Shown one piece after another: positions 8,376 to 32,900 of a stretch of DNA of 64,000 nt (the first letter of the stretch is position 1; each line of letters opens with the position of its first letter). This stretch comes from Eubacteriales bacterium (GTDB lineage: Bacteria > Bacillota > Clostridia > Oscillospirales > JAAYXM01), in NCBI GenBank assembly GCA_045580305.1, contig JAZNNQ010000001.1, positions 115,340 to 179,339 on the forward strand, read 5' to 3'. Below the pieces are notes generated by a model. It did no database searches. It had not been told where the DNA came from and saw only the letters and a program-made list of their open reading frames with translations. A program made the translations under genes and the position numbers.

Positions 8376-8408
8376 TTGACAAATTCTGAAAATCGGTTAT
8401 ACTATAAT
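8376..8408 (+). promoter_or_regulatory. SigA promoter for tRNA-Gln
   Basis: TTGACA at 8376-8381 and TATACT at 8398-8403 (overlapping TATAAT at 8403-8408), about 25 nt before the tRNA. Confidence 0.7.
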
Positions 8409-8431: not shown

Positions 8432-8505
8432 AGCCGGATTGTGTAAGGGTAGCACAGCAGACTCTGACTCTGTTTGTCTGGGTTCGAATCCTAGTCCGGC
8501 TGCCA
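8432..8505 (+). tRNA. tRNA-Gln (anticodon CTG)
   Basis: Cloverleaf: acceptor AGCCGGA/TCCGGCT, D-arm GTGT/GCAC, anticodon stem GCAGA/TCTGT with loop CT-CTG-AC, T-arm CTGGG-TTCGAAT-CCTAG, encoded G-CCA end. Confidence 0.96.
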
Positions 8506-8653
8506 AAACAAATAAGCACACCACATTGTGGTGTGCTTATTTGTTTTGTAGTTAGATTTGAAGGATTCGAAAGGCGGCTCTTAACAAAGTGCCGGTGGCA
8601 CTTTGTAACCGACGTGGCTTTTCCACAGAAAAGGAACCCTAGTCCGGTTGCCA
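8500..8653 (+). repeat. tRNA-linked structured repeat unit, copy A (ends in a copy of the tRNA-Gln 3' end)
   Basis: 154-bp direct repeat of 10050-10203 with 3 mismatches. It contains a 21-bp perfect inverted repeat (8505-8547), an antisense tRNA-like segment (8548-8571), hairpins at 8584-8606 and 8618-8633, and gaaccctagtccggttgcca (8634-8653; 18/20 to the tRNA 3' end). Confidence 0.92.
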
Positions 8654-8698
8654 AAAGAAGCGAACAATTTAGATGTCATCTAAATTGTTCGCTTCTTT
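8654..8698. terminator. 22-bp perfect inverted repeat directly after the second CCA
   Basis: aaagaagcgaacaatttagatg-t-catctaaattgttcgcttcttt. Confidence 0.75.
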
Positions 8699-8810
8699 CA
8701 ATGGTTTGAGGGCTTTTTCAAAAAAGCAGTTTTGAAACAAAAGGGTAGATGTCAAGCGGTTTTGAACCAGACTTGAACTGAGGACAAAATTTAATCTGTT
8801 TAAATCTTAT

Positions 8811-8844
8811 AAAATGCTATCATTTGAGATTGATAGCATTTTTT
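8811..8844. terminator. Terminator-like hairpin upstream of the cassette-1 promoter
   Basis: aaaatgctatca / tgatagcatttt followed by Ts. Confidence 0.6.
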
Positions 8845-8847
8845 ATA

Positions 8848-8876
8848 TTGCAATAATTTCCTTAATGTGTTATACT
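8848..8876 (+). promoter_or_regulatory. SigA promoter with extended -10
   Basis: TTGCAA-17 nt-TATACT with TG at 8868-8869. Confidence 0.7.
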
Positions 8877-8881
8877 ATATT

Positions 8882-9051
8882 CGCGACATAAATCTTAATA
8901 TTTGACTTATCTCATATAAGTGTGTATTTTTTTACCTTTTGGTAAAAATGCATGCTCTATTTTCGCATACTTGTATGAGATGTCGAGATTTGTGTCGCAG
9001 CAAACGGAGTTGTGCATTTTTCAGTGCGTAGCTTCGGCTGCGCACTTTTTT
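8882..9051 (+). ncRNA. Putative structured ncRNA or attenuating leader (long rod hairpin plus UUCG terminator)
   Basis: 8883-8896 pairs with 8985-8998, 8909-8925 with 8965-8981, and 8929-8936 with 8941-8948; non-Watson-Crick pairs within these stems are G-U. Terminator agtgcgtagc-TTCG-gctgcgcact plus T-run at 9023-9051. Confidence 0.55.
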
Positions 9052-9073
9052 GTCGAGGAGGATATGATGAATA

Positions 9074-10021
9074 ATGGAAATTAAGGAAAAATCTAAAAAT
9101 GAACAGATTGATAATCTAACGGAAGAAACAGAGAGCACTTTTAAGGAAATAAAAAAATCGTTGGTTACAGGTGCAATAATTATTTTATGTTTCCTTGTGT
9201 TGTTTTGCGGATACGCTTTAATTAAAAATAACATAAAAAACACTGATGAAACATACCAAAATATGGAAGAACAGACTGAACAATATATAGATAATGAGCC
9301 ACTTCTTGAAAAAATGTATCCCGAAAGCATAATTGTTGAAAAAGGGGATGATTTTATATTAGAATATTGGCCTAAAAACGTTAAGGAACCCTTTTGTAGA
9401 TGTCGTGAAATAACAGAAACAGGAGAGTTGGATTGGTCAAATGATATAACGGTTAAGGGTTATTGGGATCCAGTACGAGGTTATTCACCACACAACGAAG
9501 AACAAGGCTTTCAAACATTTGTTGCACGAGAGGTTGGAACATTTTACATATGTGACCCAGACCAAGAAAAGAACCTATGCAAGGTAACTGTTGTCGAGAA
9601 AACAATGGAAGAAAAAGAAGAAATCCAGAATGATGTCAATACTCAAAAAAACTCTGTTAATGATAATAAAGCGGAGTGCGAAATAATTGTCAAAAATAAT
9701 TTACCTGAAGAATTTAAATATACTTCTTCGTTTGGTAAATGGTATTCTTCTTGTAAAGTGCATAAGGCAGATGTTATTCAAAAAAACGGAAGCGTTCTTA
9801 TTCAACTTTTATGTGAGAAAACATTTGATGAAAAAAACGGGGCTTCTGCTAAATGTTATATTGTTTGGAAATTATATGATGACCAAAATATAGTGGTTGA
9901 TTCCGGACGTGTATCTAAGCATAATATTTCTGTCAATGAAATGTTTACAGAAACAATTTATATATTTAAAGATCTTGCTCCTAAAAAATACATTTTAGAA
10001 TTTTCAGAATTGCAATTATGA
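9074..10021 (+). CDS. Hypothetical single-pass membrane protein with a probable Ig-like extracellular domain
   Basis: N-terminal TM (LVTGAIIILCFLVLFCGYALI); YPESIIV...VAREVGTFYI...CKVTVV resembles a bacterial Ig-like (Big_2) repeat; AT-rich codons. Confidence 0.7.
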   Translation: MEIKEKSKNEQIDNLTEETESTFKEIKKSLVTGAIIILCFLVLFCGYALIKNNIKNTDETYQNMEEQTEQYIDNEPLLEKMYPESIIVEKGDDFILEYWPKNVKEPFCRCREITETGELDWSNDITVKGYWDPVRGYSPHNEEQGFQTFVAREVGTFYICDPDQEKNLCKVTVVEKTMEEKEEIQNDVNTQKNSVNDNKAECEIIVKNNLPEEFKYTSSFGKWYSSCKVHKADVIQKNGSVLIQLLCEKTFDEKNGASAKCYIVWKLYDDQNIVVDSGRVSKHNISVNEMFTETIYIFKDLAPKKYILEFSELQL

Positions 10022-10049
10022 CTTCACCTGTCATCTAAACCATTCGGCT

Positions 10050-10203
10050 CTGCCAAAACAAATAAGCACACCACATTGTGGTGTGTTTATTTGTTTTGTA
10101 GTTAGATTTGAAGGATTCGAAAGGCGGCTCTTAACAAAGTGCCGGTGGCACTTTGTAACCGACGTGGCTTTTCCACAGAAAAGGAATCCTAGTCCGGCTG
10201 CCA
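10050..10203 (+). repeat. tRNA-linked structured repeat unit, copy B (ends in a perfect 20-nt tRNA-Gln 3' end)
   Basis: Direct repeat of 8500-8653; 10184-10203 gaatcctagtccggctgcca is identical to 8486-8505. Confidence 0.92.
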
Positions 10204-10207
10204 TTAG

Positions 10208-10235
10208 AAGAGCAAGTCGTATGACTTGCTCTTTT
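10208..10235 (+). terminator. Hairpin/terminator just after the copy-B CCA
   Basis: aagagcaagtc-gtat-gacttgctctt followed by Ts. Confidence 0.7.
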
Positions 10236-10372
10236 GTATTTGTGTCCGTATGAGAAAATATTATTATAAGTATGTTGCGCCTTCGGTACAAATACACCTT
10301 GAATATGCAGTTTTTGATTTTTGCGGATAATTTGATTAAATACAACGCCTAAAGAGACTGTTTTGCAAAAAA

Positions 10373-10436
10373 GCAAGCGCTACTTGACAATGTTCCAAAA
10401 GAATTTGGTTGATTTTTCCTCGCGAACTGCTAAAAT
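10373..10436 (+). promoter_or_regulatory. Promoter and probable XRE operator of cassette 2
   Basis: Palindrome caag-cgcta-cttg at 10374-10386; TTGATT-16 nt-TAAAAT with extended TG; RBS aaggagg before TTG 10469. Confidence 0.5.
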
Positions 10437-10468
10437 GATATTATGAACTGAAAAAAGGAGGAACTTTT

Positions 10469-11347
10469 TTGTTAAGCGAAAATATCAAAAAATTTAGAAA
10501 ATCAAATAATATGTCACAAGACGAATTGGCAGAAGAATTAGAAGTTACAAGACAGAGTGTCAGTTTGTGGGAAACAGGGCAGACACAGCCGTCTCTCGAT
10601 AATATAGTTGCCTTGGCTAAATTATTTAATGTTTCTACTGATGATCTATTAACAGACGGTAATTTGAAATCTATTGGAGGAGAAAAAACTATGTGCGAAA
10701 AGAAAAACAAAAGAATATATATTTTAATTGGATGTATTGTAGTAATTGCTGTTTTGCTCGCCGTTGTTCTGCTGTGGAAATTCGGAAATTCTGATTCAAG
10801 CAATACGAGTAATATGGATTCCGGCGATGCTGAAGTAGTTGTATCTGAAAAAAATATTGAAGACTTATATGATTATCTTAAAAATTTCGTAGTTCAAAAC
10901 GGTACTACCAACGGGGACTACTGTTATTATTCTAAAACCGCTGATAATTACGGCGGCAATGCAGCCGAAGACTTTTCGCTATATTATTGGGGAGATACTG
11001 ATACGATAGAGTTTTGCTTACATAGAGTTATAGATGATACATTCAGCATCAATTTTTACTTGTATGTTCCTAAAAATTATACCGGCAAATATGAATATGT
11101 AGCATCTCATTATTACAGAGATACAGGTGAACCGATTTATGAGGCAAAAGGAACGATAACAGCCTCTGAATTCACGGAGAGCTATCCGTTAAATTGCAGT
11201 AAATACACTGGCTCGGCAGATGAACAGAATGAATTTATGGAAATTAGCCGAGAAGGCGTATGCAATCTGATTTCTTGTCTTGAGAATTTCATTTCAGTTG
11301 AAAAGCTTGAATATACATTTGAAGATTTTGGATTTACTGCTTTTTAA
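10469..11347 (+). CDS. XRE/Cro-family HTH regulator fused to a TM helix and an extracellular domain
   Basis: IKKFRKSNNMSQDELAEELEVTRQSVSLWETGQTQPSLDNIVALAKLFNVSTDDLL is an HTH_3-type domain; TM IYILIGCIVVIAVLLAVVLLW follows. Confidence 0.88.
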   Translation: MLSENIKKFRKSNNMSQDELAEELEVTRQSVSLWETGQTQPSLDNIVALAKLFNVSTDDLLTDGNLKSIGGEKTMCEKKNKRIYILIGCIVVIAVLLAVVLLWKFGNSDSSNTSNMDSGDAEVVVSEKNIEDLYDYLKNFVVQNGTTNGDYCYYSKTADNYGGNAAEDFSLYYWGDTDTIEFCLHRVIDDTFSINFYLYVPKNYTGKYEYVASHYYRDTGEPIYEAKGTITASEFTESYPLNCSKYTGSADEQNEFMEISREGVCNLISCLENFISVEKLEYTFEDFGFTAF

Positions 11348-11377
11348 TTTCGCTATGCTCTTATTAGAGGTGGTACT

Positions 11378-11719
11378 ATGAAAATAAACAAAGCCAATGC
11401 ACTTCGTTTGTGGGAAGAATATTTCGGCAATGCTCAATTTGCTGAGGATTTCCACGGGAATCTTATGTGCCGAGACGGATACGGAGATGATGATTTTTGT
11501 GTCAATCATTGGGGCAAAATAATTTATTGCGGTTGGAACATACATCATATTTTGCCGCTTTCTTGTGGTGGTACGAACGAAAAGCACAATCTGATTTGCA
11601 CCAATATCTACACAAATGATGAGGCAGAAGATAAGATCACTTATTGGATCGATGACAGTCTTTATCAAGTTCAAAGGATTTATGGCACACGAGAATATGA
11701 AATAGTTAAGCTTAATTAA
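11378..11719 (+). CDS. HNH endonuclease family protein
   Basis: WNIHHILPLSCGGTNEKHNL...N HNH signature; RBS gaggtgg. Confidence 0.8.
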   Translation: MKINKANALRLWEEYFGNAQFAEDFHGNLMCRDGYGDDDFCVNHWGKIIYCGWNIHHILPLSCGGTNEKHNLICTNIYTNDEAEDKITYWIDDSLYQVQRIYGTREYEIVKLN

Positions 11720-11731
11720 TTGGATATTTCA

Positions 11732-11770
11732 AATAAAGGCACACACCACGATGTGATGTGTGCCTTTATT
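11732..11770. terminator. Bidirectional terminator at the island's right edge
   Basis: aataaaggcacac..cac / gtg..gtgtgcctttatt between the convergent HNH gene and ybaK; similar in sequence to the post-tRNA hairpin. Confidence 0.75.
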
Positions 11771-11784
11771 ATATATCTATTATT

Positions 11785-12258
11785 TTATCTTGTAATAGTT
11801 TCTATTTTTCCATCTATCAAGCTGATTAATTCTGTTGGTGATACCTCCACTTGGTAGCCTATTTTGCCGGCGCTAAAAACTATGGTGTCGAAATTCATAC
11901 AAGAGGCATCGATAACCGTCACATATTGCTTTTTCATACCAATGGGCGAGCAACCGCCTCTTATGTAACCGGTTACCTTATTTATATCCTTGACTTGTAT
12001 CATTTCAACAGCTTTTTCACCCACCGCTTTTGCGCATTTCTTTAAATCAAGCTCGTTTAAAACCGGTACTACAAAAACATAGTAATTTTTAGACGGTGCA
12101 ACTGTGACCAGAGTCTTAAAAACCTGACTTGGATCTTTATCTATCTTTTTAGCAACCGACTGTCCGTCGAAATCGCCGTCACTCTCGTAGGTATGCAAAT
12201 CGTAACTTATTTTATTCGCTTCAAGTATACGCATCGTGTTTGTCTTGAAATTTGCCAT
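11785..12258 (-). CDS. ybaK: Cys-tRNA(Pro) deacylase YbaK/EbsC
   Basis: KTNTMR, VFKTLV, TGYIRGGCSPIGMKK, SAGKIG motifs. Confidence 0.93.
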   Translation of the reverse strand: MANFKTNTMRILEANKISYDLHTYESDGDFDGQSVAKKIDKDPSQVFKTLVTVAPSKNYYVFVVPVLNELDLKKCAKAVGEKAVEMIQVKDINKVTGYIRGGCSPIGMKKQYVTVIDASCMNFDTIVFSAGKIGYQVEVSPTELISLIDGKIETITR

Positions 12259-19845: not shown

Positions 19846-20274
19846 CGCTTCACAACCCTCAACAATATCGTCATAGGTTTCATCAAAGTTGCCTGTATAC
19901 CAGGGGTCAGCAATATCCCGGGGATGATCGGTAATGTCAAGTAGTCGCATAATCTTGTTTTCCGGGTCAGATCCAACGATTCTCAGCATATTACGGATAT
20001 TATGCTGGTCCATGGCAAGTAGTAAATCGTACTCATCATAATCTGCCTTTGTCATTTGTACCGCATATTTACCCTTGGTGGAAATACCGAGAGGGGAAAG
20101 TTTTGCAACCGTTCCGTGATGTACGGGATTACCAAGCTCCTCCCGACTTGTAGCAGCAGATGCAATATATACCTTGTCCGAAAGTCCGGCTTTTTTTACC
20201 ATATCACGGAACACAAATTCAGCCATAGGACTTCTGCAAATATTACCGTGACATACAAAAAGAATTTTTTTCAT
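19825..20274 (-). CDS. Low-molecular-weight protein tyrosine phosphatase
   Basis: VCHGNICRSPMAE and DPWY motifs. Confidence 0.93.
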   Translation of the reverse strand: MKKILFVCHGNICRSPMAEFVFRDMVKKAGLSDKVYIASAATSREELGNPVHHGTVAKLSPLGISTKGKYAVQMTKADYDEYDLLLAMDQHNIRNMLRIVGSDPENKIMRLLDITDHPRDIADPWYTGNFDETYDDIVEGCEALLKKLF

Positions 20275-20293
20275 AATAACTCCTTAATACAAC

Positions 20294-20322
20294 AAAAGAG
20301 CCGAGCGTCGCTCGGCTCTTTT
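20294..20322 (-). terminator. groEL terminator
   Basis: aaaagagccgagcg/cgctcggctctttt inverted repeat. Confidence 0.8.
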
Positions 20323-20332
20323 AATTTGCGGT

Positions 20333-22373
<2,041 letters not shown>

Positions 22374-22405
22374 GAGTTCAGCTACCAAATATTGTTACAT
22401 TTTTG

Positions 22406-23518
22406 TTAATAGTACATATAGTACTCACATTTTATCATACCGTTATATAATTTGCGGCGTTTAGTTGGGTTTCTTCCATAAAGGCGGGGAAGTTCCTGGT
22501 GTGATGATATAATATATGTTGGGAACTCTGGATTTCTTCGCATAACTTGACCGAGAGTGCGATAAAGTGCCTCGGCTTTCTGGATATCAAGTAAGCGCTC
22601 ACCATATGGCGGGTTGGTAATTACAATTCCGCTCTCGCTTTCCGGTTTCCATTTGAGTACATCACAGTTTTTGAATTTCAAATACTGTGCGACACCTGCC
22701 TTAGCGGCGTTACCCATTGCAATATTAAGGGCATTGTCGTCTATGTCAGAGCCATAAAGACGGAAATCACGCTTGAATATTTTTCCTTTTGCATCGGAGC
22801 GCAGGCTTGCCCAAAGTTCTGCATTTGAGTTTTCCCAAGCCTCTGCCGCGAAGCGACGGTAAAGACCGGGCGCTCTGTTTTGTGAGATCATTGCCGCTTC
22901 AATTAAAATTGTACCCGAACCACAGAAAGGATCGTACACAACCTCGCGGCCGCGATAATGGGCAATATCTACCATACCGGCGGCAAGTGTTTCTCTGAGC
23001 GGTGCATCATTTGCCTTAGCGCGGTAGCCGCGCTTGTGAAGACCTGCACCGGAGGTGTCTAAATATATGCTGGCAATATCGTTTAAAATACCGAATTGAA
23101 TTTGATATTTAGCACCTGTTTCTGCAAACCAGGAAAGGTGATATGCTTCTTTAAGACGCTCAACAACCGCTTTTTTCACAATACTCTGACAGTCGGGAAC
23201 CGAGTGAAGTTGTGAGTGGAGCGCATAGCCTTTAACCGGAAAAGCGCCGTCCTTAGGAATGAATTTTTCCCAAGAAAGAGCTTTTACATTGTCAAAAAGT
23301 TCGGTAAAGCTTTTGCAGGGGAATTCGGCAAGGCGAATTAGTACTCGCTCACCGGAGCGGATCCAAAGATTGGCGCGTGCCATATCCTCAAAACCACCGG
23401 TAAAGAGAACTCTGCCGTTTTCTACTTTAATATTAGCCAAATTAAGGCGTTTACATTCGTTTCCTACAATTCCTTCCAGACCAAAAAGGCAGGGGATTGC
23501 AAAGGTAAGGTTTTTCAT
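22406..23518 (-). CDS. THUMP-domain rRNA methyltransferase (RlmL/YpsC-like)
   Basis: LHKRGYR, APLRETLAA, DPFCGSGT, NPPYGER. Confidence 0.92.
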   Translation of the reverse strand: MKNLTFAIPCLFGLEGIVGNECKRLNLANIKVENGRVLFTGGFEDMARANLWIRSGERVLIRLAEFPCKSFTELFDNVKALSWEKFIPKDGAFPVKGYALHSQLHSVPDCQSIVKKAVVERLKEAYHLSWFAETGAKYQIQFGILNDIASIYLDTSGAGLHKRGYRAKANDAPLRETLAAGMVDIAHYRGREVVYDPFCGSGTILIEAAMISQNRAPGLYRRFAAEAWENSNAELWASLRSDAKGKIFKRDFRLYGSDIDDNALNIAMGNAAKAGVAQYLKFKNCDVLKWKPESESGIVITNPPYGERLLDIQKAEALYRTLGQVMRRNPEFPTYIISSHQELPRLYGRNPTKRRKLYNGMIKCEYYMYY

Positions 23519-23572
23519 TGATACTCTCCTCTGTTAAATGGTGCTGTCTGACAACAGACAGCACCATATCTT

Positions 23573-26032
23573 TTAAGCTGCGGGGGATTCTGCGACTTCA
23601 TCTTTTGGATCTTCGGTTGAAGAAACATCCTCGGAAGTATCCTCCTCGGGGAGTTCTTCATCAGGCACTTCATCATCCAACGGAACATCTTCACTCTCCG
23701 GATCATCATTCGGTTCTTCAACAGGTGGAGGCGGAGCCTCGGCATGGGTGGTACAAGATTCGTTGAAAGTGGACTTGTTGGCAGCGAAGTAATATTCACC
23801 GCTTGCCGGCGCTTGGTTGTGAATTGTATACTGCTCATCTCCAACCAGAATTCCCGATAAGGGGAATGAACGGGACAGGTCTAAAAGACCAAAGGTTTTA
23901 ATGTTTTCTGCAGGGCAGAATTCGGTGGGTTTTTGCATAGTAGCACTGTCAAGGTCAACACCTGTATGAACGGTACAGCGCTTTGTGGGTACATCGTCCT
24001 TGTGGAAATACCCAGCGATTACTTGAGTTCCGCGAACATCACTTCCGCAATATTCATTGGGAAGCAGGCCGCTTGTGGAACATACATTGACATACTTAAA
24101 ATCATCACTTGCATCGAAATTTTTTGCGGGCAGGCCCTTGTGAATTTCGTTCATAATCTTTTTCCATGTAGTAAGTGCCGGCGAGAGTCCCTTGGGAATA
24201 GATCTGGGGCTGTCATAACCGTACCATACCGCCGCGCTGTAATAGGGGGTATAACCAACATACCAACGGTCTTTATCATCGTCAGTTGTACCGGTTTTAC
24301 CTGCGGCGGGCATATTGCTGAGCCGAGCGAGATTACCGGTACCACCGGGACTCATAACCTTGGAGAGCATATAATTCATATATGTCGCGGTTTTCTTGCT
24401 CATAGCATCGATGACCGCAGGCTTTTTCTCCAAAAGAACATTACCTTGGTTGTCGAGTACCTTGGTATAGGTGTGCGGCTCGATATATGTGCCGTTGTTT
24501 ACAAAGGCGGAGTATGCTGCCGCCATTTCCATTGTGGAAACACCGGTTGTAAGACCGCCCAAAGCAAGGGGTGCTAAGTTCTTGTCGGAATCTTTATTAA
24601 GCTTTGAGAAGCCTAAATTTGTGGTCATAAAGTTATAAGACCGTTCGGGTGTAAGCTCATTCAAGGTCTTGACAGAAATGGTATTGATAGACTCCATAAT
24701 AGCCTTAGTGATCGTCATTCTACCTTGATAGCGCTGGGTTTCGTTTTTCGGATAAGCCTTGCCGTTTAAAACGGTAAAGGGCGTATCATCCATTGCAGTC
24801 TGGGGATTAATAAGTCCGTATTCAATGGCAGGGGCGTAAACCGCAATCGGCTTAATCGAGCTTCCCGGCTGACGGAAGGTCTGGGTAGCACGGTTCCAGC
24901 CTCGGTTCTGAGTTTTGACACCTCGTCCACCCACAAGGCCCTTTACGGCACCAGTATAGGGATCCATAATGACCATGGCACACTCGGGCATACCCTTGCC
25001 ACTGGCAGCGGGGAAGTTGGAGTCGTCGCGGAAATGTTTATCCATAACCGACTGTATATCGGGGTCAACAGTAGCATAAATCTTAAGACCGCCGGAGAAT
25101 ATCATTTTTTCAGCAACCTGATAGGAGAGTCCGTGTTCTGCCATAAGGTCGTCAATGACATCTTCAATTACCTGATCGACAAAGTAGGATTGAATGTTAC
25201 TCTCGATTTTCTCTTCTTTTGTTTTTCTCTTGAACACAAGTTCCTCAGCGATTGCGGCTTCATACTCTTCTTGAGTGATAAATTCAAGCTCAAGCATTTT
25301 TGCAAGGGTATTGCGCTGACGCTTTAAATTGTTTTCGGGATTAATAAACGGGTCGTAATAGGTAGGCAGGTTAGTAATGCCTATAAGGGATGCACATTCT
25401 GCAAGAGTAAGCTCGGACACATCTTTACCAAAATAGACCTCAGCAGCGGTTGATACACCGTAACAGCCTTGGCTTAAGTAAATTGTATTCAAATAAAGCT
25501 CAATAATTATATCCTTCGTATAGTGCCGCTCGATATAAAGAGCGCGGGTGATTTCCTGCAACTTGCGGCGCACGGTATCCTGCTTATCGCCGGTAAGGTT
25601 CTTAATTAACTGCTGTGTGATGGTGGAGCCACCGAAATCACTTCGCATCTGGAACACAAGGTTAACCGCAGCGCCAAAGGTTCGTTTCCAGTCAACACCG
25701 CTGTGGGACTCGAAACGCTCATCCTCAATTGCGATAGCTGCATACTTTAAGTGCTTGGGCATATCCTTAAGGTCTACCCAAGAACGGTTTTGAGTAGCAT
25801 AAAGGGTCTCAAGCTCATGCTCATTTCCGTCATCATCAAGATAACACACGGTGGAAGTATAGTTTAAATTCATTGTTTCCACACCGATATCAACCGCTGA
25901 ATCCAGCGTGAGCAAATAAACACCGAAGGCCAGCAGGCAGATAAGTGCCGTGAACAAGACAATAAAGCCAAAGGTTTTTAAAATAAACTTTAACAAAGTA
26001 TTTTTCTTTTTCTTAGTAGCTTTCCTTTTCAA
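23573..26032 (-). CDS. Class A penicillin-binding protein (PBP1A family)
   Basis: EDERF, GGSTITQQLIKN, RKLQE transglycosylase motifs; SSIK, SIN, KTG transpeptidase motifs; start reassigned to TTG 26032 after ggaggtg; acidic Pro-rich tail. Confidence 0.94.
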   Translation of the reverse strand: MKRKATKKKKNTLLKFILKTFGFIVLFTALICLLAFGVYLLTLDSAVDIGVETMNLNYTSTVCYLDDDGNEHELETLYATQNRSWVDLKDMPKHLKYAAIAIEDERFESHSGVDWKRTFGAAVNLVFQMRSDFGGSTITQQLIKNLTGDKQDTVRRKLQEITRALYIERHYTKDIIIELYLNTIYLSQGCYGVSTAAEVYFGKDVSELTLAECASLIGITNLPTYYDPFINPENNLKRQRNTLAKMLELEFITQEEYEAAIAEELVFKRKTKEEKIESNIQSYFVDQVIEDVIDDLMAEHGLSYQVAEKMIFSGGLKIYATVDPDIQSVMDKHFRDDSNFPAASGKGMPECAMVIMDPYTGAVKGLVGGRGVKTQNRGWNRATQTFRQPGSSIKPIAVYAPAIEYGLINPQTAMDDTPFTVLNGKAYPKNETQRYQGRMTITKAIMESINTISVKTLNELTPERSYNFMTTNLGFSKLNKDSDKNLAPLALGGLTTGVSTMEMAAAYSAFVNNGTYIEPHTYTKVLDNQGNVLLEKKPAVIDAMSKKTATYMNYMLSKVMSPGGTGNLARLSNMPAAGKTGTTDDDKDRWYVGYTPYYSAAVWYGYDSPRSIPKGLSPALTTWKKIMNEIHKGLPAKNFDASDDFKYVNVCSTSGLLPNEYCGSDVRGTQVIAGYFHKDDVPTKRCTVHTGVDLDSATMQKPTEFCPAENIKTFGLLDLSRSFPLSGILVGDEQYTIHNQAPASGEYYFAANKSTFNESCTTHAEAPPPPVEEPNDDPESEDVPLDDEVPDEELPEEDTSEDVSSTEDPKDEVAESPAA

Positions 26033-26120
26033 GAAATAACACCTCCAAGAACAGGTACAATAATACTGCAACATAATTATACCACAACTTTTCCCAATTT
26101 GCACCAAAAAAATAAAAAAA

Positions 26121-26150
26121 GTATAAAATGTATGTAAAAGGGTAAAAATG
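26121..26150 (+). promoter_or_regulatory. SigF/SigG-type forespore promoter
   Basis: GTATA-15 nt-GGTAAAAAT upstream of the bofC-like gene. Confidence 0.55.
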
Positions 26151-26183
26151 CTAATATGCATTTTAAATCGGAGGGGAATTTCG

Positions 26184-26525
26184 TTGCAGGGAAAAATTAA
26201 ATTTTCGAAGCGGAATATTACCATAATTGCTTGTATGTTCTTTATTATGACCGCGTTTATTGCAAATGGCATTTCGCATTTACAAAAGAGTGAAGAGCGT
26301 GAATATACCCCTACGGTATCGCAGCAGATAACCGAGAAGAAGTATATTTTAAAACTTTATAACGGCAAGGTTGCCGTATTCAAAGAAGGTAGTGATACAC
26401 CTTCGGAAATCACAGATATATCCGAGCATTCGCTAAGAAATTTTGATTATGAGCAGTTAAGCCTCGGGGTAGTGGTAATAGGTGACATAGAGCTTGCAAT
26501 GCGACTGGAAGATTACGGAAGTTAA
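26184..26525 (+). CDS. BofC C-terminal-domain-like secreted protein
   Basis: Signal/TM, then YILKLYNGKVAVF...TDISEHSL...QLSLGV...LEDYGS, the pattern typical of clostridial BofC_C proteins; TTG start after ggagggg. Confidence 0.7.
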   Translation: MQGKIKFSKRNITIIACMFFIMTAFIANGISHLQKSEEREYTPTVSQQITEKKYILKLYNGKVAVFKEGSDTPSEITDISEHSLRNFDYEQLSLGVVVIGDIELAMRLEDYGS

Positions 26526-26556
26526 AAAAGCAGAGGGAAGTATCCCTCTGCTTTTT
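26525..26556. terminator. Bidirectional terminator
   Basis: aaaagcagaggga/tccctctgctttt between convergent genes. Confidence 0.75.
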
Positions 26557-27226
26557 ATTTACTTAAAAAATCTATCGCATCTTCCACTGCGTGTTTTGCA
26601 TCGCCCAGTGGCTCATTTGCAAATCTATGGTCAAAGCTCTTTGCAAATTTTGAAACATTTGCAGATAACTTCTCTAAAAGGGCCGCGGTTTTTGCCGTAT
26701 GGTCCTCATAGAAAACTGCAAAATGTTTTTTAGAAAGCTCGTTTTTGGCAAAGTTTAAAAGGCCGGCAAGATGGTGTGGGCAAAAATACTCCTGCTCACG
26801 GGTAAGTTCTTTAAATTCCGGCTCTACCAACCAAAGATGAATTACATTTGAATAATATTTTGAAAGGCGGTCCTTGATTTGTCTGCAAACATAGCAGGCA
26901 TCAACCGCTGTGCTTATTTTGTCTGCAAGAGCGGGAAATTCCTTTTTGCCGGGTGCCTTTTGCGTGATTGCGGAAAGCAATTCCTGAGTATGGCTTTCCA
27001 AAATAAGGGCAAGGGGAAGCTTCTTCTGCATGGCAAGCATATCCTGAAAATGCTTTTTACAAAAGCCGTAACGGTTTGTTTCAATTCGCACATCGGGCTC
27101 CATCATAGCAGCACCCATAACATATTCAAGTGATATTTGTTCTAAGTCCGCCTCTAACTTACATAAAGGACAGCCGCATTTAGCTTCATATGCTTCGTGT
27201 ATAGGTATTGTGTAAATTGTTTCCAT
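26555..27226 (-). CDS. Conserved clostridial Cys-rich protein (DUF6062-like)
   Basis: METIYTIPIHEAY..CGCPLC, GFCKKH, CYVC, FCPHH repeated metal motifs. Confidence 0.75.
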   Translation of the reverse strand: METIYTIPIHEAYEAKCGCPLCKLEADLEQISLEYVMGAAMMEPDVRIETNRYGFCKKHFQDMLAMQKKLPLALILESHTQELLSAITQKAPGKKEFPALADKISTAVDACYVCRQIKDRLSKYYSNVIHLWLVEPEFKELTREQEYFCPHHLAGLLNFAKNELSKKHFAVFYEDHTAKTAALLEKLSANVSKFAKSFDHRFANEPLGDAKHAVEDAIDFLSK

Positions 27227-31874: not shown

Positions 31875-32900
31875 TTAGCTCTTTTTATCGGTCTGTTTAA
31901 TTGATGCAAGGGGATTGACACGCGCCGCCGTGCGTAAATCCTCCTCTTCTACATGGGTGTATATTTCGGTCGTGTTGAGATTTTGATGTCCCAAAATTTC
32001 TTGAAGAACACGAACATCAACACCGCTTCTGTACATGAGAGTAGCTGATGTGTGGCGAAGTTTATGTACGGAAATTTTTGGATCAAGCCCCGCCCAACGG
32101 CAATATTTCTTCACAAGCCACTTCACCGTTTCAGTTGAGATGCGGCGCTTATGCTTGCTTATAAAAAGTGCATTTCTGTCGATGGGGCGGATTTCCTTTA
32201 TTACCTTGCGCTTAAGTAAATATGTATTTATAGCGCTGATGCAGGCATCATTTAAAAATACCACGCGCTCCTTGTTACCTTTACCGATAACTCGCAGTGA
32301 ATCTTCTCTAATGTCCGTTAAATCAATGCCGCAAAGTTCAGATACACGCAAACCGCAATTTAAAAACAGAGTGATGATACAATAATCACGCTCTTTGAAT
32401 TCGCCGTCAATGTGATCAAGAAGAGATACGCTTTCGTTAAGACTTAAATATTTAGGCAAAGAACGGCGAATTTTTGGCGTTTCAAGATCACTCATCGGAT
32501 TTACTTCAATAAGACGCGCCTTTTTTTCCAAATATTTGTAAAATGCACGAATAGATGCTATTTTGCGGGCACGGCTGGTAGCGGACAAGCCGTGCTTGCT
32601 GTTCTTGCTGTTGGGGTGTACCGCACGGTCACGGGCGAGATAATCAAGATAAGCATAAACATCGGTAAGCTTAATGCGGGTAATCAAAGAGAGGTCAACA
32701 TCATCAATGTTAATGGAATCCAGTTCCTCAATTTTGTCCGATGGCACCAGCTCGAAAAACCATTTCATATATCTGAAGAATAGACGCAAGTCCAGATAAT
32801 ATTCGTCGCAGGTCTTTGGCGAACGACCACCAACTGTCGAAAGATAACGGGTAAAGTCATCGAGCAGAGGGAAGGTCTCACTTTTTTTCTTGATATGCAT
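31875..32900 (-). CDS. XerC/XerD-family tyrosine recombinase
   Basis: Catalytic residues intact: GLRVSEL, GKGNKER, HKLRH, LGH, TEIYTH. Confidence 0.92.
   Translation of the reverse strand: MHIKKKSETFPLLDDFTRYLSTVGGRSPKTCDEYYLDLRLFFRYMKWFFELVPSDKIEELDSINIDDVDLSLITRIKLTDVYAYLDYLARDRAVHPNSKNSKHGLSATSRARKIASIRAFYKYLEKKARLIEVNPMSDLETPKIRRSLPKYLSLNESVSLLDHIDGEFKERDYCIITLFLNCGLRVSELCGIDLTDIREDSLRVIGKGNKERVVFLNDACISAINTYLLKRKVIKEIRPIDRNALFISKHKRRISTETVKWLVKKYCRWAGLDPKISVHKLRHTSATLMYRSGVDVRVLQEILGHQNLNTTEIYTHVEEEDLRTAARVNPLASIKQTDKKS

Follow-up and report, generated by a model that had tools for sequence, protein, structure and literature searches.

Integron attC sites are folded, imperfectly palindromic sequences of about 60-140 nt whose structure is conserved above their sequence, and integrons combine them with an adjacent IntI, an attI site, a Pc promoter, a GTTRRRY core and promoterless cassettes. 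The 178-bp tyrT repeats of E. coli lie directly behind a tRNA gene and each end with the last ~19 nt of that tRNA. They are found at a single locus in one species and only in tandem; we know of no family of such repeats across tRNAs. Group I internal guides and trans-splicing ribozymes share a layout in which the 5′ guide is complementary to target sequence spanning the junction, and a structured core and a 3′ segment identical to the target downstream of that junction follow; bacterial group I introns occur in tRNA genes. Tandem tRNA-targeting islands reportedly include the products of ICE/IME/CIME accretion and the ssrA islands of Dehalococcoides. Tycheposons are described as tandem islands behind a tRNA with partial tRNA copies between modules (10.1101/2020.12.28.424599).

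The window, i.e. the whole stretch of 64,000 nt that was analyzed, contains a tRNA-Gln(CTG) gene with encoded CCA at 8432-8505 (ARAGORN; Rfam tRNA, 56.7 bits); all features below lie on the same forward strand unless stated. A promoter-like site (TTGACA, 16-18 nt spacer, TATACT) precedes it at 8376-8405, as a consensus match only (11/12 positions). The repeat search returned a pair of direct repeats, 8500-8660 and 10050-10210, with 97% identity (156/161 nt). These units A and B were identical at 151 of 154 positions over 8500-8653 and 10050-10203 (mismatches at 8536, 8637, and 8648), as originally noted. Judging from the sequence, chance cannot account for a repeat of this length and identity, and the three to five differences between the units, together with their unique flanks, argue against an assembly duplication.

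Each unit closes with 20 nt copied from the tRNA 3′ end, and the two enclose a 1.39-kb low-GC gene. Unit A includes hairpin 1 (8504-8548), which is terminator-like, with 22-bp arms of 100% complementarity and a T-rich run after them. The 5′ arm that follows (8562-8568, AGGATTC) has the reverse-complement sequence of tRNA positions 57-63 (T-loop/T-stem) and forms P1 with 8634-8640, a helix with one A.C mismatch in this copy. The conserved core (8569-8633; model R1 match C1:123900-123980, 85.6 bits) comprises P2 (8573-8577 with 8609-8613), P3 (8584-8593 with 8597-8606, loop GGT), and P4 (8618-8623 with 8628-8633, loop CACA). Copy A of tRNA positions 57-76 including CCA (8634-8653) has two mismatches (8637 and 8648), and hairpin 2, with perfect 22-bp arms, lies immediately 3′ of it (8654-8698). 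Unit B repeats this order, with a copy of hairpin 1 (10054-10098; repeat/inverted-repeat search), the 5′ arm (10112-10118) and core (10119-10183; model R1 match C1:125450-125530 for 10112-10183, 88.5 bits), and copy B of positions 57-76 including CCA (10184-10203), where the final 20 nt of the tRNA (GAATCCTAGTCCGGCTGCCA) are found again without change. The tRNA ends noted earlier are present in both units. A terminator-like hairpin 3 (10205-10236) lies 3′ of copy B, and a decayed tRNA-end-like stretch (..TTCGGCTCTGCCA, ~10040-10053) is located just ahead of the hairpin 1 copy in unit B.

The open reading frames lie where they had been placed. The upstream region of cargo 1 (8830-9073) includes promoter-like sites at 8830-8857 and 8848-8876 and a leader with terminator-like hairpins at 8996-9014 and 9023-9046; summed depth at 8936-9102 was high in four faecal or gut runs. 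The ORF (9074-10021) encodes 315 aa with an N-terminal hydrophobic stretch. This protein matched no Pfam family, which leaves its earlier ‘Ig-like’ label without Pfam support, and the protein atlas contained no usable match. GC content was 31-34% for cargo 1 and 31-36% for both cargos, compared with 42-47% in the flanks. Among 40 related genomes there was no convincing relative of cargo 1, only two short, weak matches (E 3.7e-5 and 3.7e-4), and a 969-nt contig with 11 differences was found in run X1. The explanation that we consider most likely reads cargo 1 as a horizontally acquired gene between two units. Cargo 2 (10409-11719) consists of a promoter-like site (10409-10436) and two ORFs. The first (10469-11347, 292 aa) carries Pfam HTH_3 and a predicted membrane segment; the second (11378-11719, 113 aa) matched HNH_5 weakly and below the cut-off (E 0.008; 16.5 bits, cut-off 27.5), so that the HNH assignment is tentative. 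A promoter scan gave 17 sites against 13.9 expected from shuffles, and the promoter-like sites before the cargos, although present as noted, are therefore weak evidence for promoters of their own. Between cargo 2 and a ybaK-like gene (11785-12258, reverse strand; Pfam tRNA_edit) lies a terminal hairpin (11732-11770), which may be the ancestral tRNA-Gln terminator, given its 80% complementarity to hairpin 1 over 30 nt. The interval 8432-11770 contains no recombinase, integrases included, as had been noted; the closest Phage_integrase match that this genome contains lies at window position ~31944-32450.

A covariance model of the core gave six matches in the genome of the window, all 3′ of tRNA genes (tRNA-Gln twice, Ala-GGC, Arg-ACG, Leu-CAA, and Met), and these copies are only 80-86% identical. 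In all six, the core (~75 nt) recurs while the terminal ~20 nt switch to the local tRNA, just as anticipated. The element has three parts: (i) a 7-15 nt 5′ arm, reverse-complementary to the local tRNA starting at T-loop position 56/57; (ii) a conserved ~65-nt core forming a three-way junction (P2-P3 and P4); and (iii) a copy of the local tRNA that runs from position 56/57 through the terminal CCA. The 5′ arm pairs with the beginning of this copy as P1, which covaries with the local tRNA across copies. In a fold test with 30 sequences, 94.7% of cells paired, compared with 42-55% when partners were slid, and 15 of 28 pairs showed changes on both sides. For 94 distinct sequences the figures were 96.8% versus 38-50%, with both-side changes in 22 of 28 pairs; none of 500 shuffles reached the observed values. 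Junction nucleotides were nearly invariant across families. The unit is a real, folded, and recurrent element, and the original observation is confirmed.

Of 32 genomes of the same family, 15 carry the core, as do 7 of 150 sampled other genomes of the class, spread over three further families; outside the family, a same-strand tRNA lay upstream in nine of ten loci of the class-wide sample. A 24-nt core word searched in one-genome-per-species contigs identified at least 119 stretches, and 80 loci were taken further. This set comprises 89 exact word matches, and the records concerned bear titles such as Oscillospiraceae, Faecousia, and Agathobaculum. Which tRNAs serve as hosts varies between genomes. 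Related copies lie behind the same tRNA in sister genera (tRNA-Gln(CTG) in G000, G010, and G013; tRNA-Pro(TGG) in G009 and G012), with unalignable terminators beside them. No Rfam family matches the element, neither Intron_gpI nor any other ribozyme family does so at E up to 1, and full-text literature searches aimed at it yielded no description. The core was absent from the phage collection searched and the exact 24-nt word from the viral contig collection. A looser core pattern detected two viral contigs, L227 (IMG/VR), with the element in a tRNA-operon arrangement, and L228, without a tRNA.

Among the matches listed, 65 of 89 copies follow a same-strand tRNA whose end is at most 400 nt upstream, 9 have too little upstream sequence, and 15 lack such a tRNA; none has only an opposite-strand tRNA. 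Host tRNAs of the listed loci comprise 18 species, with further ones in other searches. Of the 66 copies whose locus includes a tRNA, 51 have a core that ends no more than 135 nt from it with nothing between, the 80-nt core piece sitting at a constant 95-135 nt, and 8 of the 89 copies are located between two same-strand tRNA genes of one operon. At L153, the search found no tRNA in the 50 kb upstream. A terminator-like hairpin lies between tRNA and element in most loci. The tRNA-tail copy is identical to the local tRNA in 30 of 66 cases, has one mismatch in 8 and at least three in 28; identity falls from ~100% over the first 7 nt to 63% at CCA, and the distal part is often lost. Contiguous arm-copy pairing of at least 7 nt was detected in 70 of 83 copies. 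The element shows no conservation at its left end, and the duplicated stretch varies in size (21 nt in L159; ~55 nt including the terminator after tRNA-Ala; extending through the arm after tRNA-Thr and likewise in L025 and L031), and no single cut-and-paste geometry explains both.

In Agathobaculum, tRNA-Arg(TCT) and tRNA-His are 25 nt apart in L175 and 142 nt apart in L159, i.e. the same tRNA is empty in one strain and filled in another. The extra 116 nt consist of a 23-nt spacer, arm and core, and a 21-nt copy of positions 56-76, and the sequence 3′ of this copy is homologous to that 3′ of the tRNA in L175. This pair shows that the unit is inserted or lost on its own, although deletion between the 21-nt repeats could have produced the empty site, which would then not be the pre-insertion state. 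Unit-cargo-unit arrays recur in 5 of the 80 other loci listed (L112, L118, L160, L170, and L135); L112 differs from its cargo-free counterpart L141 by ~2.09 kb of cargo plus one ~154-nt unit. Their cargo is of accessory type (LytTR plus DUF7010, KilA-N, HTH_26 plus a lipoprotein-like ORF). Units also terminate larger low-conservation regions with defence-type genes, e.g. SIR2-NB-ARC-TPR (L153) and an AAA_15/21 ATPase plus HNH (L180). Most copies have no cargo, and where it is present it lies left of a unit, as in islands that close with arm and core, and not behind the unit as had been proposed. A primary role as cassette boundary does not agree with the copies directly behind tRNAs, those within tRNA operons, or the Agathobaculum unit that came or went alone. 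Nor did the contigs compared contain the circular cassettes that had been suggested, or alternative junctions.

No mobilising enzyme was found, and no recombinase family recurs beside the elements in the 80 listed loci. RVT_1 occurs in 3 of 15 family genomes with the element and 4 of 17 without it, Y1_Tnp in 11 of 15 and 8 of 17, respectively; TnpB and IS110 gave nothing over cut-off in the genome of the window. In that genome a classical integrase adjoins tRNA-Thr(GGT). A truncated serine-recombinase gene was noted directly 3′ of tRNA-Tyr at L118, and three such genes upstream of the unit at L153.

The explanation we favour, holding it with evenly balanced confidence, is that the unit belongs to a new family of tRNA-targeted structured insertion elements, small and non-coding, that is widespread in Oscillospiraceae-type Clostridia and whose repeats let accessory genes come and go. 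The element would be read as a single strand, most simply as RNA co-transcribed with the tRNA, possibly as single-stranded DNA. Pairing of the arm with the T-loop would set the landing site or what retains the element, the tRNA-end copy would be a duplication made or carried at insertion, and an enzyme would act in trans. Against this scheme stand the negative searches for a mobilising enzyme, the diverged copies within one genome, and the variable left end and duplicated stretch; nor does any step that we can name account for the 10-15 nt arms that match tRNA-specific bases. The window array most likely arose by recombination at or between units, i.e. by integration of a circular unit plus cargo or by duplication, and recombination between units could also remove the cargo again. 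Since cargo may be added and deleted in this way, the tRNA-Gln locus would behave as a small gene-exchange spot, though without an integron-type machine; ordinary recombination between two ~155-nt repeats would be enough for gain and loss of cargo 1. A small folded element that carries the tail of its local tRNA and is common in a group of gut bacteria suggests that tRNA genes are marked or targeted in a manner not yet described.

An integron-like system, in which arm, core, and copy form an attC-like site, a recombinase encoded elsewhere shuffles cassettes, and units without cargo are empty sites, appears unlikely to us. It would account for the arrays with accessory-type cargo here and in the five other loci, for the pair L112/L141, and for the units closing regions with defence-type genes (L153 and L180); moreover, the stem of the folded strand (arm with copy) repeats the target duplex, as in attC and CTX-phage sites. 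The integron analogy is only partly supported. However, most copies lack cargo and some sit inside tRNA operons, no array has an integrase beside it or a GTTRRRY-type core, the cargos have promoter-like sites of their own, circular cassettes and alternative junctions were absent from the contigs compared, and the length of the repeats would already suffice for ordinary homologous recombination. We consider improbable a host-selected cis-acting RNA that is co-transcribed with the tRNA, maintained by selection, and dispersed through rare duplications; it could act as a processing signal, as a ribozyme that frees a 3′ fragment of the tRNA, or by mimicking the tRNA 3′ end, with T-box leaders, which carry gene-specific specifiers, as a parallel. 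Strong covariation, a location always on the tRNA strand and for some copies within tRNA operons, and copies shared behind the same tRNA by sister genera while neighbouring terminators cannot be aligned favour this possibility, and the 80-86% identity within the genome and the near-invariant junctions fit an old functional RNA family no less well than they fit an active mobile element. Patchy occurrence (15/32 family genomes), host tRNA sets differing from genome to genome, the filled and empty sites of one tRNA, the frequent loss of the distal copy including CCA (at least three mismatches in 28/66), the intervening terminator-like hairpin, and the lack of a matching Rfam family speak against it.

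Highly doubtful, finally, are scars of integrase islands, with the copy as attR, the core as a conserved attP arm, and everything else deleted. Tandem islands split by partial tRNAs are known, as described for tycheposons (10.1101/2020.12.28.424599), and the integrase beside tRNA-Thr(GGT) and the serine-recombinase genes at L118 and L153 would be in line with such an origin. Yet random deletion would not leave an 80-nt piece at constant distance from the tRNA in 51 of 66 loci, and an attP arm has no reason for compensatory changes in four helices or for complementarity to each local tRNA. The core is also absent from the phages searched and, as exact word, from the viral contigs, the looser pattern adding just L227, in its tRNA-operon arrangement, and the tRNA-less L228; L153 has no tRNA within 50 kb upstream.

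Compared with the known systems, the insertion element favoured here resembles integron arrays in placing folded, imperfectly palindromic sites of ~60-140 nt, conserved in structure above sequence, between unrelated accessory genes at a fixed chromosomal address. In contrast to integrons, the window array has no adjacent integrase, attI, Pc promoter, or GTTRRRY core, the site is tied to a tRNA gene, of whose 3′ end it carries a copy, and most sites are without a cassette, while the cargos have their own promoter-like sites. With MITEs and REPINs it shares small size, non-coding multi-copy nature, predicted hairpins, insertion-site duplication, and mobilisation, if any, in trans. It differs in having no fixed terminal inverted repeats, a target-specific ‘terminal repeat’, one gene class as target, and old copies (80-86% identical) instead of a recent burst; also, the presence of Y1 transposase does not track it. 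The order of guide, core, and target segment is that of guide-bearing ribozymes, but the element matches no ribozyme family at E up to 1 and catalysis would be hypothetical; unlike group I introns it does not interrupt the tRNA, and its core is far smaller. Like the tyrT repeats it sits behind a tRNA gene and ends in the tRNA 3′ end, whereas the arm/core architecture is not known from those repeats. Tandem tRNA islands likewise have successive modules split by partial tRNA 3′ ends, some modules without recombinase genes, and accessory or defence-type cargo. In those islands, however, the att site consists entirely of the partial tRNA, and the element is defined by its integrase gene, whereas here a conserved structured core and a tRNA-complementary arm precede every copy, and the commonest form is a gene-free unit of ~100-150 bp, in some cases inside a tRNA operon.

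The tRNA-Gln(CTG) gene at 8432-8505 is followed by a direct repeat of 161 nt with a period of 1550 nt, whose two copies, unit A (8500-8660) and unit B (10050-10210), are identical at 156 positions (151 of 154 over the shorter span taken in the original prediction). In each unit, the last tRNA bases are followed by a terminator-like hairpin of 22 bp and, after a short spacer, by a conserved stretch that leads into a 20-nt copy of the tRNA end. Positions 57-76 of tRNA-Gln, including CCA, are copied exactly at 10184-10203 in unit B and with two mismatches at 8634-8653 in unit A. The original prediction had described repeat units with a tRNA-Gln tail around cargo, and this observation was confirmed by the repeat and its tail copies. 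Between the units lie another hairpin and cargo 1, a single ORF of 315 aa without family assignment. Cargo 2, to the 3′ side of unit B, consists of two ORFs, the first of HTH_3/membrane type and the second small and weakly HNH-like, with no unit behind them; a convergent ybaK-like gene follows. The GC content of the inserted region is 31-36%, compared with 42-47% in its surroundings. Promoter-like sites were present at both cargos, in a weak scan that found 17 sites where 13.9 were expected. ORF and family searches detected no recombinase ORF within 8432-11770, and the four matches to the Phage_integrase domain in the source genome (G000) are all outside the array, the nearest about 20 kb off. 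This nearest match is an ORF on the reverse strand of the window at about 31944-32450 (342-aa frame, 145 bits), with no tRNA gene near. A further hairpin between cargo 2 and ybaK (11732-11770) resembles the first hairpin of the units (80% over 30 nt) and is a candidate for the original terminator of tRNA-Gln, in which case everything from 8506 to about 11730 would be inserted DNA.

Cargo 1 had no convincing relative among the 40 related genomes searched and nothing in the protein atlas, and neither its protein patterns nor a 65-nt unit word matched metagenome contigs. It was found at about 99% identity in contigs from faecal metagenome runs; contigs of four sequencing runs (X1-X4) cover cargo 1 and parts of 8650-9100, the best run containing a fraction of 0.21 of the sampled words. 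At this coverage, which gives blanks no weight as evidence, contigs were absent from 10606-11774 (most of cargo 2), none spanned a unit, and joints were not seen. The leader before cargo 1 (8936-9102, with terminator-like hairpins at 8996-9014 and 9023-9046) showed a summed depth far above its surroundings in four faecal or gut runs. This depth comes from many short contigs with differences, and it looks as though many organisms have the segment, which had no Rfam match, as a common leader or attenuator.

The central ~75 nt of the unit recur at four further sites in the source genome with 80-86% identity, each directly behind a same-strand tRNA gene (Ala-GGC, Arg-ACG, Leu-CAA, and Met). The original prediction had proposed to look for the core behind other tRNAs with flanks switching to the local tRNA, and these four sites show just that. 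The conserved core of the copies in this genome reads GAAAGGCGGC..CCGGTGG..AACCGCCGTGGCTTTTCCGCAGAAAAG, with a tRNA-specific flank on either side. In the 3′ flank, the local tRNA is copied from position 56 or 57 in the T-loop through CCA; the 5′ flank, or arm, is the reverse complement of the start of this copy, e.g. GGATTCG/CGAATCC for Arg, GGGACTT/AAGTCCC for Leu, and GGATTTG/CAAATCC for Met. Trained on 30 copies, a covariance model found exactly the six copies of the source genome. With E-values that are to be taken as rough, the model also detected the element in 15 of 32 genomes of the family (at most 10 copies per genome) and in 7 of 150 other genomes sampled from the class, belonging to three further families; outside the family, a same-strand tRNA lies upstream at 9 of 10 loci.

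A 24-nt core word occurred in at least 119 stretches of a one-genome-per-species collection; the counts for this word that follow rest on the 80 of these loci that were listed, equivalent to 89 exact matches. Record titles comprise Oscillospiraceae, Faecousia, Agathobaculum (two isolates), Butyricicoccus, Vescimonas, Feifaniaceae, Eubacteriales, and Clostridia, besides two odd MAG contigs titled Bacteroidaceae and Hallerella. In 65 of the 89 matches listed, a same-strand tRNA ends at most 400 nt upstream; nine had too short an upstream sequence to be judged, and 15 had no tRNA upstream, including second units behind cargo and units behind partial tRNAs. A tRNA on the opposite strand alone was seen in none of the 89. 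Host tRNAs belong to at least 18 species among the matches listed, with others in further loci, and for 51 of 66 copies among these matches, no more than 135 nt separate the tRNA from the end of the core. Tandem units were frequent (loci L107, L118, L146, L148, and L169, and contig G013:C5). The arrays of L124 and L139 start with a partial tRNA-Pro(GGG) lacking its 5′ half, followed by more elements; this partial gene looks like the attR of a different, larger upstream insertion. In L163 (about 1900-2100, in the element's orientation), the element follows a sequence ending ..GGGGTTCGACTCCCCTCAGCTCCACCA, which we take to be a tmRNA-type 3′ end; ARAGORN made no call there in a tRNA-only scan. 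The phage collection gave no match to the core and viral contigs no exact 24-mer; a looser pattern matched two viral contigs, one resembling a tRNA operon (L227) and one in which no tRNA was found (L228).

Comparative analysis of the element gave a three-way junction, in which P1 is formed by the arm and the start of the copy, P2 by GGCGG and CCGCC, P3 by a 10-bp hairpin whose loop is usually CC-GGU-GG, and P4 by CUUUUC-CGCA-GAAAAG. In 30 hand-collected copies, 94.7% of the cells were paired (42-55% with partners slid), and changes on both sides occurred at 15 of 28 pairs. In 94 distinct copies aligned to the model, the corresponding values were 96.8%, 38-50%, and 22 of 28, and none of 500 shuffles reached the observed pairing values; the pair counts of this alignment are biased towards the structure of the model, to which it was fitted. 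RNAalifold picked another P4; the one given here is favored by compensatory changes (C-G to U-A, U-A to C-G, and a paired insertion). In single-sequence folds of the Gln units, the P2 strand paired competitively with the tRNA tail and z-scores were only -2.0 and -2.7; the comparative structure was relied on instead. When the window segment 7800-12500 and six other loci were searched with Rfam 15, nothing but tRNA passed the threshold; the best other matches were chance-level microRNA models and the trpB motif (33.7 bits, threshold 59).

Pairing between arm and copy was contiguous over 7-15 nt in 70 of 83 copies among the matches listed, 20 of these including a G.U pair. In L143, nearly the whole tRNA end, down to the complement of CCA, is present in the arm as an inverted copy. 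Compared with the tRNA tail, 30 of 66 copies among the matches listed were identical, 8 had one mismatch, and 28 had three or more, mostly with just the first 8-14 nt left. Identity was about 100% over the first 7 nt, a value partly built in because anchoring required at most two mismatches there, fell steadily to 63% at CCA, and was 38% in the next 12 nt. The part of the copy engaged in P1 is thus kept while the distal part decays. In most loci, the duplication ends at the tRNA end; longer duplications run through the terminator (tRNA-Ala, about 55 nt) or through spacer and arm (tRNA-Thr; L025 and L031 in relatives).

Gain or loss of a single element is visible in two cultured Agathobaculum strains, whose loci L159 and L175 share an operon of tRNA-Gly, Arg(TCT), His, Gln(TTG), and Lys. 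The Arg-His spacer measures 25 nt in L175 versus 142 nt in L159. Of the additional 116 nt, 23 form a spacer, which is followed by arm and core, and the last 21 repeat Arg positions 56-76; behind this copy, 26 nt are homologous to the 25 nt behind the tRNA in L175. Behind tRNA-Gln, both strains have an element. The empty site may represent the pre-insertion state or a deletion between the 21-nt repeats. Copies between tRNA genes were found in 8 of the 89 matches listed and in one IMG/VR contig; the Agathobaculum sp. records NZ_UYYD01000002.1 and NZ_JBQKJR010000004.1 contain such copies. Since the Agathobaculum operon elements have no terminator ahead and tRNA genes on both sides, such operon-internal elements must, judging from this gene order, be part of the precursor transcript.

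At the tRNA-Gln(CTG) locus itself, which was parsable in 6 of 22 genomes, the site is empty in G003, G004, and G005, holds one unit in G010 and G013, and holds two in the source genome; terminators differ among the compared loci. A ybaK homologue is present in 14 of 24 relatives and adjoins tRNA-Gln in none of them. Units separated by 1-2.8 kb were found in five of the 80 loci listed (L112, L118, L160, L170, and L135). The genes between them include (i) a LytTR regulator with DUF7010 and another membrane ORF; (ii) a truncated serine-recombinase ORF with KilA-N; (iii) an HTH_26 regulator with a lipoprotein-like ORF; as well as (iv) ORFs without family. The truncated serine-recombinase ORF directly after the tRNA in L118 is the sole such case among the loci listed. 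Identity between L112 and L141 is 98.5% across tRNA-Tyr plus the unit and 93.4% where the second unit begins and beyond; L112 has an extra ~2.09 kb of cargo and a second unit of ~154 nt, both absent from L141, a difference with the geometry of the array in the window.

Units also close longer regions with defence-type genes (L153 and L180). In L153 (G195:C26, about 20200-27000), a 926-aa SIR2-NB-ARC-TPR protein is encoded directly upstream of the unit, with three serine-recombinase genes before it, and no tRNA lies within 50 kb upstream; one large island made up of the recombinases, the SIR2-STAND gene, and the unit was considered but could not be demonstrated. In L180, an AAA_15/AAA_21 ATPase and an HNH protein, which we assume to be Septu-like, are encoded directly upstream of the unit, beside an rve transposase.

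The linkage of structured elements to tRNA ends is not confined to this core. For nine of the 32 assembled tRNA genes of the source genome, the last 16 nt recur once or twice downstream, and three other cores also end in a local 3′-end copy, with an arm spanning its start point in all three. In type 2 (about 130 nt; behind Thr-CGT, Trp, Ser-GCT, and Leu-CAA), the arm is reverse-complementary to the entire T-arm; type 3 (about 150 nt; behind Met and Trp) starts, in the Met copy, with a hairpin whose loop complements the Met anticodon loop; type 4 (behind Pro-TGG, Arg-ACG, Leu-CAA, and Leu-CAG) carries a TTGACA box. These types are located at C3:48153-48400, C33:64221-64700, C54:68270-68455 (- strand), C54:80536-80740, C12:12100-12430 (- strand), and C27:129417-129650. 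Truncated starts of type 2 were noted behind tRNA-Pro(CGG) and tRNA-Leu(TAG). Repeats related to the type-3 core (..GCTGCCGGTGGCAGATGAAGCGAG..GGTCGAAAAAATC..ACCGCAACAG) and lacking a tRNA copy occur in the same genome on C40 (the whole 4.5-kb contig) and at C13:1560-4120. They are about 350 nt apart, lie at contig ends, gave no Rfam match, and flank an ORF block which, by eye, was read as putatively phage portal- and capsid-like.

Established, then, are a conserved fold that requires a single strand, an arm complementary to the target, a copy of the target, the shared strand of element and tRNA, and presence/absence polymorphism with and without cargo. We infer that pairing of the arm with the T-loop segment selects or maintains the site, and that the tRNA-end copy would be made or carried upon insertion. 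As the best explanation, to which we give an even chance, these are non-coding structured insertion elements targeted to tRNAs, forming arrays by recombination between units. For the array in the window, recombination at or between the two units is the simplest account, as it explains both gain and loss of cargo 1 and needs no special machine. The original prediction had instead invoked an integron-like cassette array, with a tRNA-end copy ahead of each cargo and a recombinase acting in trans; recurrence of the tRNA-matched unit stands and cargo exchange is plausible, but an integron mechanism is not supported.

As for an enzyme, no protein cluster or recombinase recurs beside the elements in the 80 loci listed. 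Within the family, RVT_1 was detected in 3 of 15 carrier versus 4 of 17 non-carrier genomes, and Y1_Tnp in 11 of 15 versus 8 of 17; G007 (99% complete, six copies) has neither, and G013 (10 copies) has no Y1_Tnp match. Retro-transposition through a resident RVT_1 enzyme is therefore unlikely, as RVT_1 does not track the element and is lacking in G007. The source genome has a single RVT_1 gene (G000:C35:106132-107097; L100 2233-3198, - strand; 321 aa), whose motifs suggest a retron-type reverse transcriptase. It is located 2 kb downstream of tRNA-Arg(ACG) with its two elements, separated from them by unrelated manganese-exporter-like and ArsR-like genes. An IS200-type route is contradicted by the duplication at the insertion site, and searches of the source genome for TnpB and IS110 gave nothing above cut-off. 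P3 was also considered as a REP-like repeat and rejected: the source genome has just eight hairpins with the loop CCGGTGG and a stem of at least 5, five of them in tRNA-linked elements. The source genome also encodes RtcB (418-aa frame, region G000:C36:21490-24402), and 1.8 kb from this gene ARAGORN made an odd 72-nt 'tRNA-Ser(CGA)' call without CCA, which might be a tRNA-like (Y-RNA-type) gene and not a tRNA.

Two candidate routes remain: the core may itself be active at the RNA level, or common functions of the host may bring about site-specific or homologous recombination. In the most far-reaching reading, arm and core would be a programmable single-stranded device, probably RNA, that pairs with the T-loop region of the tRNA or its gene and attaches itself to the tRNA 3′ segment, with or without a common host enzyme; the elements would then form a new guide-bearing, tRNA-targeting, mobile, ribozyme-like class whose copies secondarily became landing pads for accessory and defence genes. 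We regard this as rather improbable; if true, it would explain why guide, core, and target copy always travel together.

tRNA genes are classic landing sites of genomic islands, and recognition of a short att site by a protein integrase is the accepted cause. In the present family, at no fewer than 18 tRNAs, a compact folded element itself holds the complement and the copy of its tRNA segment. If pairing between arm and target sets specificity, the choice of tRNA gene follows a base-pairing rule that can be read from the sequence. In gut MAGs, the family explains many of the 'partial tRNA' repeats found behind tRNA genes and many contig breaks there, as well as spots where small accessory or defence modules come and go, and it is a predicted source of ~130-nt RNAs inside tRNA operons. 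Its carriers are many uncultured and a few cultured gut Clostridia, and the cultured Agathobaculum strains, in which filled and empty sites both occur, open it to experiments.

Integrons have cassette arrays with folded sites, and E. coli tyrT is reportedly followed by repeats ending in the tRNA tail. In integrons, an IntI-type tyrosine recombinase gene, attI, and Pc lie beside the array, whereas 8432-11770 contains no recombinase ORF. Integron cassettes are mostly promoterless, with one ORF and one attC each. attC has the inverse core sites RYYYAAC and GTTRRRY, with crossover in GTT; these are absent here, the junctions reading ..GGATTCG|AAAGG.. and ..GAAAAG|CGAATCC.. (30 and 94 aligned copies). 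As in tRNA-targeting integrase islands, the inserted DNA of the array has the tRNA 3′ end directly repeated on its far side (8634-8653 and 10184-10203), but those islands contain an integrase, usually by the tRNA, for which the only counterpart among the loci listed is the truncated ORF of L118. Like MITEs and other non-autonomous transposons, the element is short, non-coding, multi-copy (six in the source genome), and associated with a duplication (21 nt in the 116-nt block of L159); unlike them, it has an arm that varies with the tRNA in place of fixed terminal inverted repeats, and no gene for an autonomous partner recurs nearby. IS200/IS605 derivatives (PATE/REP) show no target duplication and always come with a Y1 transposase, in contrast to the 21-nt duplication and the carriers without Y1_Tnp found here. 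Islands that carry an integrase are known to form tandem modules with partial tRNAs between them, as described in the tycheposon preprint (10.1101/2020.12.28.424599).

Searches of Rfam and of the main texts of the full-text literature gave no description of such an element, although Table S1 of PMC8040213, with thousands of gut RNA motifs, may list it. In neither source did we find a gene-less, covarying core that combines, for each host tRNA, the segment from T-loop to CCA with its complement, occurs across many tRNAs and genera, and in some cases lies in tRNA operons. In its layout of guide, core, and target copy, the element may be likened to guide-bearing ribozymes.
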